This document shows positions 3,123 to 40,159 of a stretch of DNA of 40,159 bases, piece by piece. Below the pieces are notes generated by a model, which was not told the origin of the DNA, ran no database searches, and saw nothing but the letters and a program-made list of their open reading frames with translations. Made by a program: the position numbers and the translations under genes. Position 1 is the stretch's first letter. Each line of letters starts with the position of its first letter. The stretch comes from a virus: UHGV virus genome UHGV-0014911, one strand, 5' to 3'.

Positions 3123-3317
3123 TTACTCAATAACTCCAGCAAATCTGTATATTTTGCGTGATGCCCATTTATTTGGGCAGGATTTAATATCAGGATCTGG
3201 AAAATCTGGCCTGTATTTCTGGCCTGTCCTCCTGTTTACGCTGTTCCAGCGAAGCACCGTCGATATTGAAACGCCACAGAATTCGGCGACTTGTTTTGTT
3301 GTCATTAAGTTGCTCAT
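3123..3317 (-). CDS. AlpA-family small DNA-binding protein (excisionase/regulator-like)
   Basis: 64 aa with RBS GGAGG 7 nt upstream of the ATG at 3317. Pattern HTH ... TVLRW ... YRPDFPDP ... W resembles the AlpA/Xis-like family typical of P4-type integrase modules. Confidence 0.55.
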   Translation of the reverse strand: MSNLMTTKQVAEFCGVSISTVLRWNSVNRRTGQKYRPDFPDPDIKSCPNKWASRKIYRFAGVIE

Positions 3318-4905: not shown

Positions 4906-5268
4906 TTAATGACCTGCTGCGCGGAGTTTTCCGTCAGGTTCACCGGCAAGAGTCAGTAATTGTCCCTGGTCTTCCTGCAGAATAGTCAGGCGACCACCGC
5001 GATTGACATACATCGGCGTTTCGGTGGTGTCTTCTTCGGAAATTTTCCCGCGGTTAGTCGGACGAACATATGAGAGTTTGTGTTTTATTTTCACACGGTT
5101 CTCATCAAACGGTTCGATTTCCAGGTTGAGCGAGACCTTCCCTTTGGTTTTCGTGTTCATCACACCTGAAGCGACTTCACTGAGAACAGCGCCGATTTTG
5201 GTTTCAAATACGCCGCCGTCCAGCTCCCCGATAAATGCCTGCACATCAGTACTGCGTTCGCTAGCCAT
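4906..5268 (-). CDS. Small conserved prophage protein, YfdP-like, 120 aa
   Basis: Start placed at the ATG at 5268 with RBS AGGAG about 7 nt upstream. The track ORF extends further upstream without a ribosome-binding site. Confidence 0.5.
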   Translation of the reverse strand: MASERSTDVQAFIGELDGGVFETKIGAVLSEVASGVMNTKTKGKVSLNLEIEPFDENRVKIKHKLSYVRPTNRGKISEEDTTETPMYVNRGGRLTILQEDQGQLLTLAGEPDGKLRAAGH

Positions 5269-5279
5269 TTTGCTGCTCC

Positions 5280-5876
5280 TCATCATATCGACCCTGCAAG
5301 GTCGGTTGGTTTCTCCACAAAACAGAGAAGAACACCTGCGGTGGCAGCCGCCCGGGTGGATTGGGTTATGAGCCCGTCGTCCGGTGATGCTCTTCTCTGT
5401 TTTGTAAAAAGAGCGGTACCAGCCGGAAGCAAGTGTACAAACTGGTACCGCCAAAGCAGTGGCTGTTGTGGTGGGCTTGTCACTTAAGCGTATGGTCAAC
5501 CTGACAACCCGGTGTCCTCAACGGGGAAGGAATAACCCCGCCATACTTACCGCCGCGCCATTTCGCGGATTACCACAACGCTGAGAGCACTTAGCCAGTT
5601 ACGGCACCATACTTTGTCGCGGTTCCATAAATGCCCTCATCGTTGCACCCTGGTCTCTTCCCAGGCGTCAAACCGAATCGCCACGCTGGTTAGGCGTCTT
5701 ATCAGCATCATCATTGACTTGCACATTCCGGCTACCTGGTTTGTTTGCCCGAGCAAGGAGTGGATTGTCCCCTTTAACGTCACCAGACCGCTAACGACGC
5801 ATGTGCCATACGCCGTGTTACAACCAAATTTTGTTAGTACCTTGTTTGTATGTCTGGAAAGAAAGATAAAATGAAG
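5280..5876 (-). promoter_or_regulatory. About 600-bp non-coding, structure-rich leader of the leftward early operon (candidate cis-regulatory RNA, processing or attenuation element)
   Basis: No convincing ORF on either strand. Contains a 15-bp perfect inverted repeat ACAAAACAGAGAAGA (5317-5331) / TCTTCTCTGTTTTGT (5391-5405) around a GC-rich 59-nt spacer, plus hairpins CGACC-N6-GGTCG (5289-5304), GTACCAG-N19-CTGGTAC (5416-5448) and GGGG-N9-CCCC (about 5524-5540). Confidence 0.35.
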
Positions 5877-5915
5877 TTGCGCATTATGCAAGTGTTTTTA
5901 TTGCGAGATATGCAA
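5877..5915 (-). promoter_or_regulatory. Candidate OL operators: two TTGC-N7-GCAA palindromes (leftward early promoter region)
   Basis: TTGCgcattatGCAA (5877-5891) and TTGCgagatatGCAA (5901-5915). The same motif recurs between the cI-like and cro-like genes. Confidence 0.45.
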
Positions 5916-5932
5916 TTTGGTGGGTAATGAAA

Positions 5933-5950
5933 AGCCACCTTCTGGTGGCT
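5933..5950 (-). terminator. Rho-independent terminator downstream of the repressor gene
   Basis: Hairpin AGCCACC-ttct-GGTGGCT; on the minus strand it is followed by TTTCATT, 20 bp after the repressor stop codon. Confidence 0.5.
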
Positions 5951-5970
5951 AATTGATGTTGAGGTAGGGG

Positions 5971-6663
5971 TTAATTGTGTCGCTTAAGGGTTTGTGACTG
6001 ACTGATTAAGACCTTTCCAAAGACCATAAACCGATGTTCGTTTTCGCTGGTAATTCCCCATTCGCGGTAAATCTGATTATCAGAAATTACCAGCAGTTTA
6101 TCAGGTATCATTTGCAGTCGTTTGACGTAAATTTTATCATCAAAACCAAATACATATATACCATCCCCATCAAACTGATTGATACTGATATCAACGAAGA
6201 TGAGATCTCCTGGCTCAATGGTTGGACACATACTGTCCCCACGAACGTTGATAACTTTAATGTGATTTGCTGGTCGTCCACCAAACATCGATACAGCATT
6301 ATCAGTTCTGTATTCAATGGCATGAATCACATCAATGACATCACCGCCCTGGATAAGGCCATTTCCCGCACTGGCACTGACATCCAGCATTTCAATACGG
6401 AATACATCCTTCACCTGCGCAACATCCTCACTAATACTGTTTTTACATACAGTATTACTTTTGAGGTCTGAGGTAAAGAGATCAGCAATATCAACACCTA
6501 AGCTCCTGGCAATATTACTCAGGGCTTGTTCAGTGAATTGTTTCTGCTTACCTGTTTCGAGGCGCGAGATATTCGCCGCATCCACTCCTATTGCTTCAGC
6601 GAGATCGGCGATTTTCATGTTCTTCGCCTGGCGAAGTTGTCTGACTCGATTTCCTATGTTCAT
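5971..6663 (-). CDS. CI-like phage repressor (N-terminal XRE-type HTH plus C-terminal S24/LexA-like autopeptidase domain)
   Basis: 230 aa. HTH near the N-terminus (KIADLAEAIGVDAANISRLETGK), Ala-Gly cleavage site (SASAGNG), and Ser/Lys dyad motifs (VRGDSMCPTIEPGDLIFVD; YVKRL). Confidence 0.9.
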   Translation of the reverse strand: MNIGNRVRQLRQAKNMKIADLAEAIGVDAANISRLETGKQKQFTEQALSNIARSLGVDIADLFTSDLKSNTVCKNSISEDVAQVKDVFRIEMLDVSASAGNGLIQGGDVIDVIHAIEYRTDNAVSMFGGRPANHIKVINVRGDSMCPTIEPGDLIFVDISINQFDGDGIYVFGFDDKIYVKRLQMIPDKLLVISDNQIYREWGITSENEHRFMVFGKVLISQSQTLKRHN

Positions 6664-6683
6664 GCGTTTATTACATTTCTTTA

Positions 6684-6746
6684 TTGCGCGTTAAGCAAAT
6701 CAACTTGCGCAAAATATTTGCGTGAAATAATATGCTCATCACGCAA
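6684..6746. promoter_or_regulatory. Candidate OR operator region between divergent repressor and cro-like genes (PRM/PR)
   Basis: TTGCgcgttaaGCAA (6684-6698), a related near-palindrome around 6705-6722, and aTGCtcatcacGCAA (6733-6746) lie in the 97-bp intergenic region. Confidence 0.45.
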
Positions 6747-6760
6747 TATGTGGAGGTTAT

Positions 6761-7021
6761 ATGCAATCACCATTACGGAATGTGCGTAAGGCGCACGGAT
6801 TTACTTTGCAGCATGTTGCTGCGGGCGTTCAGGTCAATCCAGCGACGCTGAGTCGTATTGAAAGACTGGAACAAATTCCATCTATCGATCTTGCAGAACG
6901 TCTGGCCAATTTTTTTAAGGGTGAAATCAGCGAAATGCAGATTCTTTATCCGGCACGTTTTCAATCTAGCCAAAACCAGAATGGGTTTAAACCACAGGAA
7001 CAGGAGGTAAGCCGTGGGTAA
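6761..7021 (+). CDS. Cro-like XRE-family HTH regulator
   Basis: 86 aa, HTH motif (LQHVAAGVQVNPATLSRIE), RBS GGAGG 4 nt before the ATG, divergent from the repressor. Confidence 0.75.
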   Translation: MQSPLRNVRKAHGFTLQHVAAGVQVNPATLSRIERLEQIPSIDLAERLANFFKGEISEMQILYPARFQSSQNQNGFKPQEQEVSRG

Positions 7022-7571
7022 TCATCACTGGAAAGTGGAAAAACAGCCTGAGTGGTACGTGAAAGCTGTCAGAAAAACTATCGCGGCGTTGCCGGGGGGT
7101 TACGCTGAAGCTGCTGAGTGGCTGGATGTAACAGAGAACGCATTATTCAACCGCCTTCGTGCAGATGGCGATCAGATTTTCCCGCTGGGATGGGCAATGA
7201 TTTTACAACGTGCTGGTGGAACTCACTTCATTGCTGACGCTGTGGCGCAGTCTGCAAATGGCGTCTTTGTGTCTCTTCCTGACGTCGAGGATGTGGACAA
7301 CGCCGATATTAACCAGCGTCTGCTGGAAGTCATCGAACAGATCGGGAGTTACTCAAAGCAGATTCGTTCGGCAATCGAAGATGGGGTAGTGGAACCGCAT
7401 GAGAAGACAGCAATTAACGACGAACTGTATCTTTCAATTTCGAAGCTCCAGGAGCATGCAGCACTGGTCTACAAAATCTTCTGCGCTCCAGAAAAGAGTA
7501 ACGCCCGCGAGTGTGCAGCTCCGGGCGTCGTGGCGTCGATTGCTTCTGGTTGTGGAGAAACTAACGCATGA
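7014..7571 (+). CDS. Early-region protein, possibly a CII-like regulator by position (family not confirmed)
   Basis: 185 aa, GTG start with RBS AGGAGG 5 nt upstream, immediately after the cro-like gene. Confidence 0.4.
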   Translation: MGNHHWKVEKQPEWYVKAVRKTIAALPGGYAEAAEWLDVTENALFNRLRADGDQIFPLGWAMILQRAGGTHFIADAVAQSANGVFVSLPDVEDVDNADINQRLLEVIEQIGSYSKQIRSAIEDGVVEPHEKTAINDELYLSISKLQEHAALVYKIFCAPEKSNARECAAPGVVASIASGCGETNA

Positions 7572-7716
7572 ATAGTTTAACGGCAAATAACCGTTTGTCG
7601 CAACAGCTGGTGGTCAGCGTCGCTGAACACCTGTTGTTACGGCATGAATGCAGATTACCAAATCACCTGGCTGTAAGTAACCACAGAGAACTTTACCTGA
7701 TTGTGGGGGGCGAGTT

Positions 7717-7896
7717 GTGCAGGAACTTAACCGCTGGTTTCGTGACGGAAGAGGACTTTATGTTCATGTTATTCGTTGGGAGCCAGAAACACAGCGCGTT
7801 ATCTATCTTCGCAAAGACTACCCGCATGAGTGCTTTAGTCCTTTGTGGAAATTCAGGCGTGATTTTGTTGAGTGTGAAGGACCACCAGCATATTGA
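7717..7896 (+). CDS. Small hypothetical protein (59 aa, GTG start), absent from the ORF track
   Basis: Manual translation gives VQELNRWFRDGRGLYVHVIRWEPETQRVIYLRKDYPHECFSPLWKFRRDFVECEGPPAY, preceded by a G-rich RBS-like run, in a 600-bp stretch otherwise lacking a convincing gene. Confidence 0.3.
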   Translation: MQELNRWFRDGRGLYVHVIRWEPETQRVIYLRKDYPHECFSPLWKFRRDFVECEGPPAY

Positions 7897-8170
7897 TTCT
7901 GCAATTCCGGGACGTTACACTGTCTCTGCACCTTATAAAGCGGGTGCCGGGATTGGCGTCCTGAAATTGTCAACGGCGATGTATGACGCGCCAGCGTCTT
8001 TTTTATCGTCCGCATTTGCTCACATCCAGATTATGGTGGGCTGGGCGGGGGCACCGAAAGGTGCGCCGGTCTCCGTTGACGCCGGTTACGCCAACCCCGT
8101 CCAGTTCACCACCAGTGAAATTGGCGTTTCCGGTGGTGGAAGTTTTTCACTGTCAACGGAGGCTGCCATC

Positions 8171-8728
8171 ATGGCTACGATCCCAGCCCTCACTCAACCT
8201 GAAATCACCATTGACAACGGCCAGGCCGTTACCACTTCTTTGGCTGTTGCCAACTTCTTCTCCAAGCGTCACGACGATGTGCTGAAAAAGATCCGCACTC
8301 TGGATTGTTCCCCTGAGTTTTGTGCCCGCAATTTTGCGGAGACATCGATTTCGGTAAATCAACCGAACGGTGGTACACGCAAGCTCCCTTGCTATCAAAT
8401 CACACGAGACGGTTTTGCATTTCTTGCTATGGGTTTCACGGGTAAACGTGCTGCCCGGTTCAAAGAGGCATACATAAATGCCTTTAACCAGATGGAAAAA
8501 CTGCTTTCAAAGCCATCCACGCTGAGCGATGCCGCAGATAACGCCAGCGTGCTTTACTCCCACCTGTCGGTAATCCACAAGGTCTGGCTGCAGCAGCTTT
8601 ATCCCATGTTGGCAAAAGCCGAATCCCCGCTGGCTGTAAGTCTGTATGACCGCATCAACGACGCGGCGCTACTGGCCAGTCTCATAAATTTGTCGCTGAA
8701 CCCTTCAGAGGTAAGGGGGCGCAAATGA
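8171..8728 (+). CDS. Rha-family phage regulatory protein (antirepressor-like)
   Basis: pRha-type motif (TTSLAVANFFSKRHDDVLKKIRTL ... YQITRDGFAFLAMGFTGKRAARFKEAYINAFNQME). Start placed at the ATG at 8171 with RBS GGAGG 8 nt upstream. The frame stays open upstream to 7568, so the N-terminal boundary is uncertain. Confidence 0.7.
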   Translation: MATIPALTQPEITIDNGQAVTTSLAVANFFSKRHDDVLKKIRTLDCSPEFCARNFAETSISVNQPNGGTRKLPCYQITRDGFAFLAMGFTGKRAARFKEAYINAFNQMEKLLSKPSTLSDAADNASVLYSHLSVIHKVWLQQLYPMLAKAESPLAVSLYDRINDAALLASLINLSLNPSEVRGRK

Positions 8729-8949: not shown

Positions 8950-9764
8950 GTATGGAGTTGATGGTTAAAGCGATGAAAATTCGAGTGGGAAATCCATTGC
9001 GAAAACTGGTTCTGATTAAGCTGGCTGATAATGCCAGCGATCAGGGTGAGTGCTGGCCCAGCTACCAGCATATTGCTGACCAGTGCGAGATTAGCAAACG
9101 TTCTGTGATGAATCATATTGCGGCCCTTTGTGAGTCCGGGCTGGTAAAAAAAGTCACCCGGAAAGGTGAAAAAGGTAACTCAAGTAATATCTATCTCCTT
9201 CATCTGGATGGTGCAGGAGATTCACTAGGGGGTAGTGCAAATAATTCACTATCTGGTGCAGCAAATTCACCAGGTAGTGCAGGAGTTGCACCAGGGGGTA
9301 GTGCAGGAGATTCACCCAGAACCAGTCACTCTTTTGAACCAGTCAAAGAACCAGTCAATGAACCAATAGCTGTTGGTGCATCAGTTGATGAGTCCGTGCG
9401 AGTTCGTTCAAACCGACCGGAATACTCTCTGGAGTTTGAGCAGGCATGGCTGGCATATCCCAAACGTGCTGGTGGCAATTCAAAATCTGCAGCCTTCAAA
9501 GCCTGGAAAGCCCGTTTGAATGAGGGGGTAAACCCCGAAACCATGCTGGAAGGTGTGAAACGCTACGCGGGCTGGGTATCTGCGATGGGTAACAGCGGCA
9601 CACAATTTGTGAAACAGGCTGTCACGTTCTTTGGTCCGGATCGTCATTTCGAAGAATCCTGGGAAGTTCCTGCGGTATCTGCAGCCAGACGCGAGGACCC
9701 GTACTTCAAAGCCAGTTACGACAACGTGGACTACAGCCAGATCCCGGCAGGATTCAGGGGGTAA
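8946..9764 (+). CDS. Putative replication initiation protein (N-terminal HTH, repeat-encoded linker, conserved C-terminal domain)
   Basis: 272 aa with RBS GGAGG. N-terminal winged-helix-like segment (LADNASDQGECWPSYQHIADQCEISKRSVMNHIAAL) and C-terminal motif EFEQAWLAYPKRAGGNSKSAAFKAWKARL, which I recall from phage replication proteins. Confidence 0.5.
   Translation: MSMELMVKAMKIRVGNPLRKLVLIKLADNASDQGECWPSYQHIADQCEISKRSVMNHIAALCESGLVKKVTRKGEKGNSSNIYLLHLDGAGDSLGGSANNSLSGAANSPGSAGVAPGGSAGDSPRTSHSFEPVKEPVNEPIAVGASVDESVRVRSNRPEYSLEFEQAWLAYPKRAGGNSKSAAFKAWKARLNEGVNPETMLEGVKRYAGWVSAMGNSGTQFVKQAVTFFGPDRHFEESWEVPAVSAARREDPYFKASYDNVDYSQIPAGFRG
9210..9315. repeat. Degenerate tandem DNA repeats encoding a Gly/Ser/Ala-rich linker inside the replication protein gene
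   Basis: GGTGCAGGAGATTCAC occurs at 9210 and again at 9300; GGTAGTGCA recurs several times. Translation is GAGDSLGGSANNSLSGAANSPGSAGVAPGGSAGDSP. Confidence 0.6.
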
Positions 9765-37661: not shown

Positions 37662-38745
37662 CTATAATTTTGATAGTGGTGACGGTCTTTTTTTTATCAG
37701 CTTGGTTAAATTTCTATATGCAATTTCAGATCTTAACCCACTAACTCCAGTATAAGATGTCATTGTTTTTCTTAACTTATTATTGAAGTGTGGAGATTGA
37801 TATTTGCGTAGAACATCCATAATGTCTTTTATATCACAGGAGTCAGCCACTATATCAAAATCACGATATACATTACCATTTTGTTCAGGAATAATAATGG
37901 TTGGTTTGTACGCTTCTATAGACTCAAGTGCAGCAGTACTTCCTGATGTTAGGACAATATCAGCTTCACTTAGTGCCTCGATGAAAGTTTTGTTTTTGTC
38001 AGATAATTTAACGCTATTGTCTAATAGGGGTGAATATATATCAATGTGTTCTGGATGTGGTCGTAATATAACGTTATAACTCTTCTGTTGTAAACATTTT
38101 ACAATATCTCTAACTATTTTAGTTGGTACTGTACTTTGTAGGGCAAAAAGAAATGATAATTGTCCTGTTTTAATTTTTATTTCTATTTCTCTTGCTGTTG
38201 TGTTATAATGCTGTGCTGTGCTGTGCTGTGCTGTGCTGTGCTGTGCTGTTATCTAGTTTTGGAAGTCCAAGACTTATTACCCTATTTCTAAATTTTTCGT
38301 TGAATTTATTAATAAAAGCCTCGCCAAACACACCGAAGTAATCAAAGCAATCAAAGTTATTCTCATATCCTTCCCAGTTTTGATAAAATCCATGTTGAAG
38401 CCCAATGAAAATTGGACTTTTATAACTGTTATTCATGGCTTTCTTTAAATCTAATTCCGGACCTGCAACACAACTGGTCATCAAAACAGCATCATAATTA
38501 ACTGCATTTTTTGTAAAATCTAAAAGAACCTCTTCTTTTGTTCTGTTGACAAAATTAAAATTAGAATCAATTTTATCTACCAAAAGAATGTTTTCTTTAA
38601 TTTCCAGTAGTTTTCTGTGATTTGGATCGGATATTCTAGGGAAGAATATATAGTCACATATTCCTCCGTTCTTACGGATTTCATAAACTAAGGGAAGCCA
38701 GTTTTCTAAACATCTGTAAGTAAACGCAGTAAATAATATTCGCAT
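37662..38745 (-). pseudogene. AT-rich transferase-like cargo gene split into two reading frames at a pentanucleotide repeat (currently frameshifted; candidate phase-variable gene)
   Basis: The N-terminal segment (ATG at 38745, MRILFTAF...) runs into the repeat and stops at 38203. A second frame is open with no stop and no start codon from 38252 to 37662, spanning the repeat, and encodes ...ILRPHPEH ... IVLTSGSTAALESIEAYKPTIIIPE... The two frames meet exactly at the repeat. Confidence 0.7.
38210..38249. repeat. Perfect pentanucleotide microsatellite (GCTGT)x8 inside the coding sequence
   Basis: Eight uninterrupted GCTGT units on the plus strand, encoding (STAQH)n on the minus strand, located exactly where the frame breaks. 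Confidence 0.95.
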
Positions 38746-39258: not shown

Positions 39259-39525
39259 TTAGAGCCCAACCTGGCGAACTGTCGGGAACTCAGACACCAG
39301 CCACATATCGGCCTCTTCAAACATATCCTCCAGCATGCGGTTCAGCTTTTCCCGATCGCTTTTGCTGGCATCGCTATTCAAGGCGTTTGCCTGCATCGGT
39401 TTCACCTTCACTTCGGCATAAGGGAAAATCTGATGCACTTGCTTCGTCAACTCAGCCAGGATGATCTCTCTGGCCCCCGCCAATCCTTCAACATTACGCT
39501 TGTCATAAACCAGTTCAACGAACAT
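39259..39525 (-). CDS. DinI-family protein (MsgA-like)
   Basis: 88 aa starting MFVELVYDKRN with an acidic C-terminal region; LexA boxes lie just upstream. Confidence 0.75.
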   Translation of the reverse strand: MFVELVYDKRNVEGLAGAREIILAELTKQVHQIFPYAEVKVKPMQANALNSDASKSDREKLNRMLEDMFEEADMWLVSEFPTVRQVGL

Positions 39526-39542: not shown

Positions 39543-39586
39543 TACTGTGATTGTATACAGTAATTTTACTGTAAGAATAAACAGTG
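39543..39586. promoter_or_regulatory. Two tandem LexA (SOS) boxes upstream of the MsgA-like gene
   Basis: TACTGTgattgtatACAGTA (39543-39562) and TACTGTaagaataaACAGTG (39567-39586); both fit CTGT-N8-ACAG. Confidence 0.7.
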
Positions 39587-39910: not shown

Positions 39911-40159
39911 TTAGTGAACAAACCACTCGTCAGCAGACTCCCGGGTATCTTTCAGAGTTTCCTGAACAAAAGTTTTAGCTGAATCTTTATCGGCGGTGCG
40001 CGTAACAGAAAGGCCATCGTTGCTGGTGGCTTTTACGATCACCTCTACATCGTCATAACGCTTACTGATGCGTCGAGTTAATTCTTCCTTTAACGCATCC
40101 ACAGCACCGTTTGGCATTTTAGTCATCTTCTCTTTGGCTATGCAGATCTCAATACGCAT
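39911..40159 (-). CDS. dinI: DinI-like DNA-damage-inducible protein
   Basis: 82 aa, MRIEICIAK ... ESADEWFVH, closely resembling E. coli DinI; the start codon sits at the last bases of the window. Confidence 0.8.

Follow-up and report, generated by a model that had tools for sequence, protein, structure and literature searches.

The Repressor Locus and Its Cassette

The virus genome UHGV-0014911 was analyzed as one strand of 40,159 nucleotides (nt), referred to here as the window, with attention to a palindromic motif, TTGC-N7-GCAA, that an earlier note had placed on both sides of a CI-like repressor gene and proposed as the operator of that repressor. The locus belongs to a lambdoid prophage and forms its early control region. 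Positions 5200-7600 were 97% identical to Escherichia phages PhiR47_1, PhiR40_1, and mEp460, 95% identical to Stx2a-converting phages, and 91% identical to Shigella phage SfII. The repressor gene, cI (5971-6663, minus strand), encodes a protein of 230 amino acids (aa) with the Pfam domains HTH_3 at residues 7-62 (E 1e-10) and Peptidase_S24 at residues 104-218 (E 6e-19). Ala99-Gly100, Ser144, and Lys181 were invariant in family alignments, within SASAG, GDSM, and VKRLQ, respectively. The cro gene (6761-7021, plus strand, 86 aa), identified from the open reading frame (ORF) list and an HTH_3 match, diverges from cI across a 97-bp spacer and is followed by a CII-like gene (7014-7571, plus strand) with a Pfam Phage_CP76 match. 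A terminator scan placed an intrinsic terminator of cI at 5933-5950 (minus strand), consisting of AGCCACCAGAAGGTGGCT followed by TTTTC; a hairpin was present at this position in all 7 aligned phages, with a stem sequence that diverges in the more distant ones.

Of the relatives studied biochemically, HK022 CI was the closest one found, with 43% identity over 91% of the protein. Comparison of CI to solved structures gave weak matches only (the designed 434-repressor-type domain dh434, ClgR, SinR, and UmuD; E of about 1e-4). Several public records (Stx2a_1447, 1720a-02, and phiNP) begin cI at an internal methionine, Met16, a start that would delete the first helix of the helix-turn-helix domain. 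The stretch concerned is 6618-6663, and its 15 codons before Met16 were conserved as protein in relatives down to approximately 50% identity. Records with a DNA-binding domain truncated in this manner can be corrected.

PL/OL, the terminator, cI, OR/PRM/PR, and most of cro together form an exchangeable immunity cassette (5836-6985). The cassette was carried by 1041 of 5426 complete E. coli genomes, or about a fifth, and was also found in Stx2a-converting phages and the Shigella serotype-converting phage SfII, with a diverged version in Salmonella ST64B. Phage cdtI matched the window with 98% identity over 5000-5835 and 93% identity over 6986-7800, with an unrelated cI/cro in between. TTGC-N7-GCAA was not found in the cdtI cI-cro cassette, the spacer of which has GTAC-type repeats. 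The swap removes the sites, while the CII-like gene and the left operon remain; the sites therefore move with the repressor cassette rather than with either of these. The mosaic junctions with cdtI are sharp (5835/5836 and 6985/6986); the left one lies about 20 nt downstream of the putative PL start, and the right one lies 36 nt before the cro stop codon. Many Stx2c phages probably have the same junctions, as they showed an identical query coverage of 52%.

Occurrence of the Putative Operator Motif

The exact motif occurred 3 times in the window, at 5877-5891, 5901-5915, and 6684-6698. The count itself was unremarkable (1.54 expected, with 3 or more in 23 of 100 shuffles); the clustering was not random. 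All 3 sites lie within 822 bp, where the window-wide rate predicts 0.033 per 870 bp (Poisson probability of at least 3, approximately 6e-6), and in 20,000 shuffles of 5836-6985 that preserved dinucleotide composition, 3 or more exact sites never occurred. Matches with one mismatch numbered 24 in the window compared to 28 expected, so that a lone match of this kind carries no meaning by itself.

We scored the window with a matrix derived solely from sites in 4 relatives (ST64B, a Klebsiella phage, phiNP, and Flotzy), whose CI proteins are 68-84% identical to that of the window; the sites of the window were excluded. Four window sites took ranks 1 to 4 among approximately 40,000 positions, with 19.3, 16.2, 16.1, and 14.3 bits, while the best score in shuffled sequence averaged 11.7 bits and reached a maximum of 22.7 bits. 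Further matches at 3153-3169 (14.0 bits), 362-378 (11.9 bits), and 9082-9098 (10.4 bits) were within the shuffled range and were taken as chance. One operator-like sequence with a single mismatch, TTGCGATTTGTACAA (363-377), stops 9 nt short of the integrase start codon (386), probably also by chance. The family consensus was ATTGCGTAATACGCAAT; this corresponds to TTGCG-N5-CGCAA, in which the fifth base is degenerate. The arms that had been given as TTGC and GCAA are thus present as described, and are better written with this additional soft position.

On the left side, 2 exact copies adjoin the terminator hairpin, as the earlier note had stated. OL1, TTGCGCATTATGCAA (5877-5891; 16.2 bits, rank 2), is the promoter-proximal copy and lies over the putative PL -35 hexamer and spacer. 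Its arms were invariant in an alignment of OL from 7 phages and nearly so in 80 close relatives. OL2, TTGCGAGATATGCAA (5901-5915; 19.3 bits, rank 1), is just upstream of that -35 hexamer. The 2 centers are 24 bp apart, a distance of 22-24 bp in relatives.

Two to three copies had been claimed for the region between cI and cro. One exact and one single-mismatch copy were found, and the third proved to be a half-site only. The exact copy is an OR3-like operator, TTGCGCGTTAAGCAA (6684-6698; 16.1 bits, rank 3), which overlaps the putative PRM -35 hexamer and spacer. The OR1-like operator, ATGCTCATCACGCAA (6732-6746; 14.3 bits, rank 4), has one mismatch and overlaps the putative PR -10 hexamer and start; every relative has A as the first base of this site, the AT being at the same time the end of the PR -10 hexamer. 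Between them lies an 8-bp palindrome, TTGCGCAA (6705-6712), a putative weak "OR2" whose first 6 bases, TTGCGC (6705-6710), would also be the PR -35 hexamer. As a full third operator, TTGCGCAAAATATTT (6705-6719) was rejected, having a left arm only, a score of -1.6 bits against the family matrix, and a right arm that is free to vary. The sequence ACTTGCGCAA was invariant in 17 diverse and 80 close loci, and the OR3-like site stood at a constant offset from it in 17 of 17 loci, while the would-be right arm varied freely. Given the invariance of TTGCGCAA, the free right arm, and the negative score, we read this element as a half-site that may act as a weak OR2 when cooperativity fills it. A sequence over the cI start, ATGCGTTTATTACAT (6662-6676), was also rejected as an operator, with 7.6 bits and no conservation in relatives.

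A second orphan half-site, TTGCG (6718-6722, plus strand), forms with 6708-6712 an everted palindrome, CGCAA-N5-TTGCG. The bases that follow it, GCGTG, were kept in 79 of 80 close relatives. The everted palindrome, CGCAAAATATTTGCG (6708-6722), consists of the 2 orphan half-sites and has its center exactly midway between the full OR sites. It was kept in close relatives (CI at least 93% identical) and was absent in the ST64B, Klebsiella, and phiNP types.

A candidate fourth right-hand site, GTGCGTAAGGCGCAC (6782-6796), falls within codons 8-12 of cro, about 49 bp downstream of the putative PR start. In the window it scored 9.7 bits, which is within noise when taken alone. TGCG-N5-CGCA was kept at this position in all 9 sequence variants, representing 17 loci, and phiNP, Flotzy, and Buttiauxella had an exact TTGC-N7-GCAA there. 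At the four-fold-degenerate third position of its Arg codon all 4 bases (T, G, A, and C) occurred, and the xCG of codon 11 was fixed across Ala, Ser, and Thr. Codon use of this kind suggests that selection acts on the DNA and not on the protein, and the cro-internal operator is a probable extra site.

Conservation of the Sites and Co-variation with the Recognition Helix

Homologous switches with CI 47-100% identical to that of the window were collected from 3 sources: phage records (SfII, Stx2a_1447, 1720a-02, ST64B, the Klebsiella phage, phiNP, Flotzy, Fels-1, ENT47670, a Yersinia phage, and HK022), 8 bacterial genome loci from 6 genera (Shigella, Citrobacter, Pseudescherichia, Klebsiella, Buttiauxella, and Trabulsiella), and 181 viral contig loci, including 80 close relatives with CI at least 96% identical. 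Where CI was 67-100% identical (16 named phages and genomes plus the 80 close relatives), the arms were at the same offsets and the centers and flanks varied. Alignments of OR and OL from 7 phages gave the same picture, with invariant arms and differing central bases and spacers, and nearly all variation among the 80 close relatives was within the central bases.

The search of related phages that had been proposed as a check found the motif at the same offsets in every switch that retains the recognition helix (V/I)D(A/S/G)AN(I/V)SR(L/V/M)ETGKQK. On the left, 2 copies 22-24 bp apart followed the terminator in most cases, with one or both missing in 2 genomic loci. On the right, an exact copy was 21-22 nt from the cI start, including 8 of 8 genomic loci, and a copy starting with ATGC was 48 nt beyond it. 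Switches with progressively more different repressors and another helix had another operator: SDVGNxSRLER (ENT47670 and the Yersinia phage) was accompanied by ATGCG-N5-CGCAT, WDVGNISRLER (Fels-1) by ATGT-N7-ACAT, and HK022 by TGAAC-N5-GTTCA. The operator motif co-varies with the repressor recognition helix. The suggestion that the motif reflects the specificity of the CI-like repressor is strongly supported by these data, as the motif both moves with cI-cro and changes with the helix.

Putative Promoters

Three promoters were assigned by reading the sequence together with its conservation. PL (5863-5891, minus strand) would consist of a -35 hexamer TTGCAT (5891-5886), a 17-nt spacer, and a -10 hexamer TATCTT (5868-5863), the complement of which, AAGATA, was conserved in 6 of 7 aligned phages. 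The putative PRM (6670-6698, minus strand) has TTGCTT (6698-6693), a 17-nt spacer, and TGTAAT (6675-6670); its ATTACA was invariant in 7 diverse phages and the 80 close relatives. Only 6 nt separate the -10 hexamer from the cI ATG, which no Shine-Dalgarno sequence precedes. With so short a distance and no Shine-Dalgarno sequence, the cI message is probably leaderless, starting at or next to the AUG. The putative PR (6705-6733, plus strand) has TTGCGC (6705-6710), a 17-nt spacer, and TAATAT (6728-6733), a -10 hexamer conserved as TAATAT or TAACAT and followed by GGAGG (6752-6756) and the cro ATG (6761). Each of the 3 putative -35 hexamers coincides with an arm of an operator or half-operator.

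Two residues near the probable leaderless 5' end, Gly4 (GGA in 24 of 26 representatives; 6652-6654) and Arg11 (CGC in 23 of 26; 6631-6633), were the next most codon-invariant residues of cI after those of the SOS box described below, and TCCTAT (6652-6657) was invariant in the DNA alignment. Their invariance may be a signal for leaderless translation or promoter escape.

The Proposed Switch

The TTGC(G)...(C)GCAA dyads are very probably the operators of a lambda-type CI immunity switch carried by the cassette. Each 15-bp dyad would be bound by a CI dimer through its N-terminal helix-turn-helix, and Cro probably binds as well. On the left, 2 adjacent sites would cover or lie just upstream of the -35 hexamer of the leftward promoter PL. 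On the right, one site would occupy the PRM -35 hexamer and spacer and another the PR -10 hexamer and start, with the half-site between them serving as the PR -35 hexamer. Bound repressor would shut PL and PR and limit its own synthesis; negative autoregulation is predicted because 6684-6698 covers the PRM -35 hexamer and spacer. By analogy with lambda and HK022, the OL and OR clusters, approximately 800 bp apart, are perhaps bridged by repressor oligomers. DNA damage would remove the repressor through RecA-stimulated self-cleavage at Ala99-Gly100. The layout that had been likened to OL/OR of lambdoid switches holds, in that the same motif lies on both sides of cI, over the putative PL, PRM, and PR, at conserved positions.

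Several observations weigh against this explanation. A generic promoter consensus scanner called none of PL, PRM, and PR as defined here. The better-scoring right-hand match is over PRM and not PR, unlike in lambda, so that the order of occupancy is unreadable from the sequence. The 2 full OR sites are 48 bp apart with a half-site between them, and pairwise cooperativity in the style of lambda is not assured over such an arrangement. BLASTP of the N-terminal domain of CI against Cro gave no alignment, and recognition of the same sites by Cro thus rests on analogy. Finally, 6 operator sequences from the window, SfII, and ST64B had no occurrence in the searchable literature, to which most subscription journals do not belong. 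That literature also held no operator description for SfV/SfII, ST64B, mEp460, or e14 ymfK, an absence that is no proof.

The right-hand side could instead hold 3 functional repressor sites, as in lambda, with 6705-6719 as a weak OR2 filled only through cooperativity. The left arm is invariant in all relatives, the center of the element is 21 bp from that of the cI-proximal site, and the counterparts in Klebsiella, phiNP/Flotzy, and C. amalonaticus are full sites with one mismatch (TTGCGCAATTCGCTA, TTGCGCAAGTCGTAA, and TTGCGCAAATCACAA, respectively). The window 15-mer, however, scores -1.6 bits and its right arm is free in the 80 close relatives. Invariance of TTGCGC may equally reflect its use as the PR -35 hexamer, although use as a promoter alone leaves the non-consensus positions unexplained. 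A third functional site is a serious possibility toward which we nevertheless do not lean.

Other explanations would take CI away from the sites altogether. The palindromes could be bound only by Cro, or by a regulator from outside the cassette such as the CII-like protein or a host factor, since the sequence alone cannot tell which cassette protein binds them and lambda CII recognizes TTGC repeats. An activator site of the lambda CII type consists of TTGC-N6-TTGC direct repeats flanking a -35 hexamer. Here the repeats are inverted and enclose 7 bases, and the sites are gone in cdtI, in which the CII-like gene remains (93% identical); sites of the lambda CII type were rejected on both counts. 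The sites moreover change with the CI recognition helix and flank cI on both sides, where the CI operators of lambda and HK022 lie, and we consider binding by such regulators in place of CI very improbable. Least probable of all, and hardly credible, is that the matches are by-products of TTGCxx -35 hexamers in an AT-rich spacer with no operator function. Three arms do coincide with the putative -35 hexamers of PL, PRM, and PR, but OL2, the OR1-like site, and the distal arms of the dyads have no promoter role and are invariant despite diverged centers and spacers, and the shuffles failed to reproduce the cluster.

With CI as the probable ligand, the switch is an ordinary lambdoid switch of the lambda/HK022 type with a new specificity of its own. 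As in lambda, cI is between left and right operator clusters, divergent PRM and PR share a spacer of approximately 100 bp, the sites are dyads with adjacent OL centers 22-24 bp apart and with one site each over PRM and PR, the cI mRNA probably lacks a leader, and the protein has a self-cleaving S24 domain with Ala-Gly, Ser, and Lys. Unlike in lambda, the sites are 15 bp with TTGC(G) arms rather than 17 bp, the left side has 2 sites and not 3, the right side has 2 full sites 48 bp apart plus a half-site, and a conserved site lies within cro. There are no rex genes and no recognizable N, the CII-like protein belongs to Phage_CP76 and is not lambda CII, and the clusters are approximately 800 bp apart compared to 2.3-2.4 kb in lambda. 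The 2 full sites on each side, the half-site at the PR -35 hexamer, and the probable cro-internal site are what distinguish the switch.

For HK022 CI, PMC8053113 describes cooperative binding, OL-OR looping over approximately 700 bp, and an extra operator downstream of OR; the HK022 operators are from Carlson and Little 1993 as cited there. Those operators have the same 5+5+5 geometry (TGAAC-N5-GTTCA) with a different half-site sequence, and the accessory operator downstream of OR is a precedent for the cro-internal site of the window. HK022 differs in having a site over the cI start codon. FsoR, encoded by the Salmonella prophage Fels-1, falls within this repressor clade with 52% identity and shares the gene layout. 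Experiments identified it as the functional prophage repressor and found its cleavage products after mitomycin C (Lemire et al. 2011, PMC3121763). Its operators differ, reading ATGT-N7-ACAT. In CP-933P of E. coli O157:H7 (PaaR2/YdaS/YdaT), footprinted palindromes, some of them half-conserved, lie over PRM and PR (PMC8630535). That system is likewise a lambdoid immunity region: its repressor gene is leaderless, its YdaS resembles Cro, its OL/PL is separate, and its YdaT regulates the same promoters. It differs in its repeat consensus, GTTTAGTAA in 18-bp palindromes, and in the co-transcription of the repressor with a toxin-antitoxin pair.

The cassette is common, yet we found no description of its operators in the searchable literature. 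The consensus should allow homo- and hetero-immunity among these prophages to be predicted from sequence, and it gives sites to mutate for virulent or non-inducible derivatives.

A LexA Box Within the Repressor Gene

The more surprising item at this locus is a conserved SOS box within the repressor gene itself. CTGT-N8-ACAG occurred 4 times in the window compared to 0.36 expected, and the best match was within cI, at 6435-6454 (sense strand TACTGTATGTAAAAACAGTA). The box spans codons 70-77, with its arms in T71, V72, and S76. A LexA matrix was built from 14 E. coli SOS boxes (PMC3009722), which themselves scored 20.1-28.7 bits. The cI box scored 26.6 bits, the top match to this matrix in the window, while the maximum of 200 shuffles was 22.0 bits. 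The counterpart in SfII, Stx2a_1447, C. braakii, and K. spallanzanii, TACTGTATATAAAAACAGTA, is exactly the box of umuD and sbmC (PMC3009722), and the window differs from it at one central base. A further CTGT-N8-ACAG, at 7671-7686, fits the loose pattern only; it was outside the 8 best LexA-matrix matches and scored below 8.7 bits.

Among 95 distinct repressors of the clade (approximately 50-100% identity), the best LexA match was at the same cI position in all 95, with 18.9-30.2 bits. By comparison, the cI genes of 7 outgroup phages (BTP1, PhiR5_1, a Mannheimia phage, Stx2_EH1910, HK022, the Yersinia phage, and cdtI) had no LexA match above 10 bits, the best in HK022 being 5.5 bits. Fels-1 shares the intragenic box with the window.

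The linker residues over the box vary (TVCKNS, TVYINS, TVDTYS, and others). Codon use was compared among 26 representatives with less than 90% identity, in which typical codon invariance was 30-60%. Thr71 was ACT in 26 of 26, Ser76 was AGT in 26 of 26, and Val72 was GTA in 25 of 26, making these the top 3 of 41 invariant degenerate residues. The box is conserved beyond the need of the protein, through fixed synonymous codons.

The box may be part of an internal promoter under LexA control (6449-6477, minus strand), with TTTACC (6477-6472), a 17-nt spacer, and TACTGT (6454-6449). In all relatives examined, TTTACC, TTTACA, or TTTACT was exactly 17 nt upstream of TACTGT. This layout matches that of a 47-bp SOS-inducible promoter derived from umuDC, in which TTGACA, 17 nt, and TACTGT follow one another (PMC9074414). 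On the opposite strand, no conserved -35 hexamer was found for an antisense promoter at the box. A hypothetical internal start (6412-6429, minus strand) consists of a Shine-Dalgarno-like GAGGAT (6429-6424) and an in-frame GTG at Val84 (6414-6412); 24 of 27 representatives had an in-frame GTG with a Shine-Dalgarno-like stretch (at least 4 of 6 bases) 5-10 nt upstream, despite differing linker residues. This arrangement suggests an SOS-induced product of 147 aa comprising the cleavage site and the S24 domain only. Such a product would have the domain plan of UmuD, a short arm with the cleavage site followed by S24, and UmuD was the nearest solved structure in that part of the protein. In contrast to umuDC and sbmC, the cI box lies within a coding region, in frame with the repressor linker.

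LexA bound at 6435-6454 would repress the internal sense promoter, and DNA damage would then yield the 147-aa fragment from the Val84 GTG. Without a DNA-binding domain, the fragment could act on repressor dimers by poisoning them or through cleavage in trans. The idea that the clade thereby has a second direct SOS input, in which a LexA-repressed sense promoter in cI gives a UmuD-like fragment that sharpens induction, is drawn from sequence comparison and is put forward as a conjecture that we regard as rather unlikely. A lexA3(Ind-) mutation left Fels-1 induction unblocked (PMC3121763), so that any role of the SOS box would be accessory. If the box is functional, the prophage would read the SOS response through both RecA and LexA within one gene, and, together with the cro-internal operator, the input would make the switch of this clade a six-site, two-repressor device. 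In the searchable literature, we found no cI gene described as having an SOS box or an internal promoter.

Elsewhere in the window, tandem LexA boxes at 39543-39562 and 39567-39586 (20.5 and 20.1 bits) were observed just upstream of an 88-aa ORF (39259-39525, minus strand) that resembles DinI by eye. A second ORF like it lies at the end of the window (39911-40159, minus strand), and there is a weaker LexA-like site at 38472-38491 (16.7 bits).

Neighboring Features

Between the putative PL and the first gene of the left operon is a leader of approximately 590 nt (5270-5862, minus strand) with no convincing ORF and an unusually stable fold (z score of -2.9). It contains a terminator-like hairpin, GGTACCAG...CTGGTACC followed by GCTCTTTTT (approximately 5410-5452), and a long near-perfect hairpin (approximately 5309-5400). 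The 3' part of the leader was conserved in SfII, ST64B, phiNP, and Flotzy, and no N gene was evident. An RNA-family search of the leader returned nothing with E up to 1, and the leader had no similarity to the HK022 locus that holds the put sites. In ST64B, the noncoding RNA STnc1310 and 2 genes downstream of cI were induced by peroxide and nitric oxide (NO) shock (PMC7067206).

To the right, the ORF at 7568-8728 contains on the plus strand Rfam matches to the Hfq-binding RNA isrK (7928-8004, 62 bits) and to C4 antisense RNA (8029-8116, 81 bits), and its Pfam "Ash" match overlaps both. Probably just the part with the Rha domain is a real protein, preceded by what would be an RNA-controlled antirepressor module of the P1/Gifsy type.

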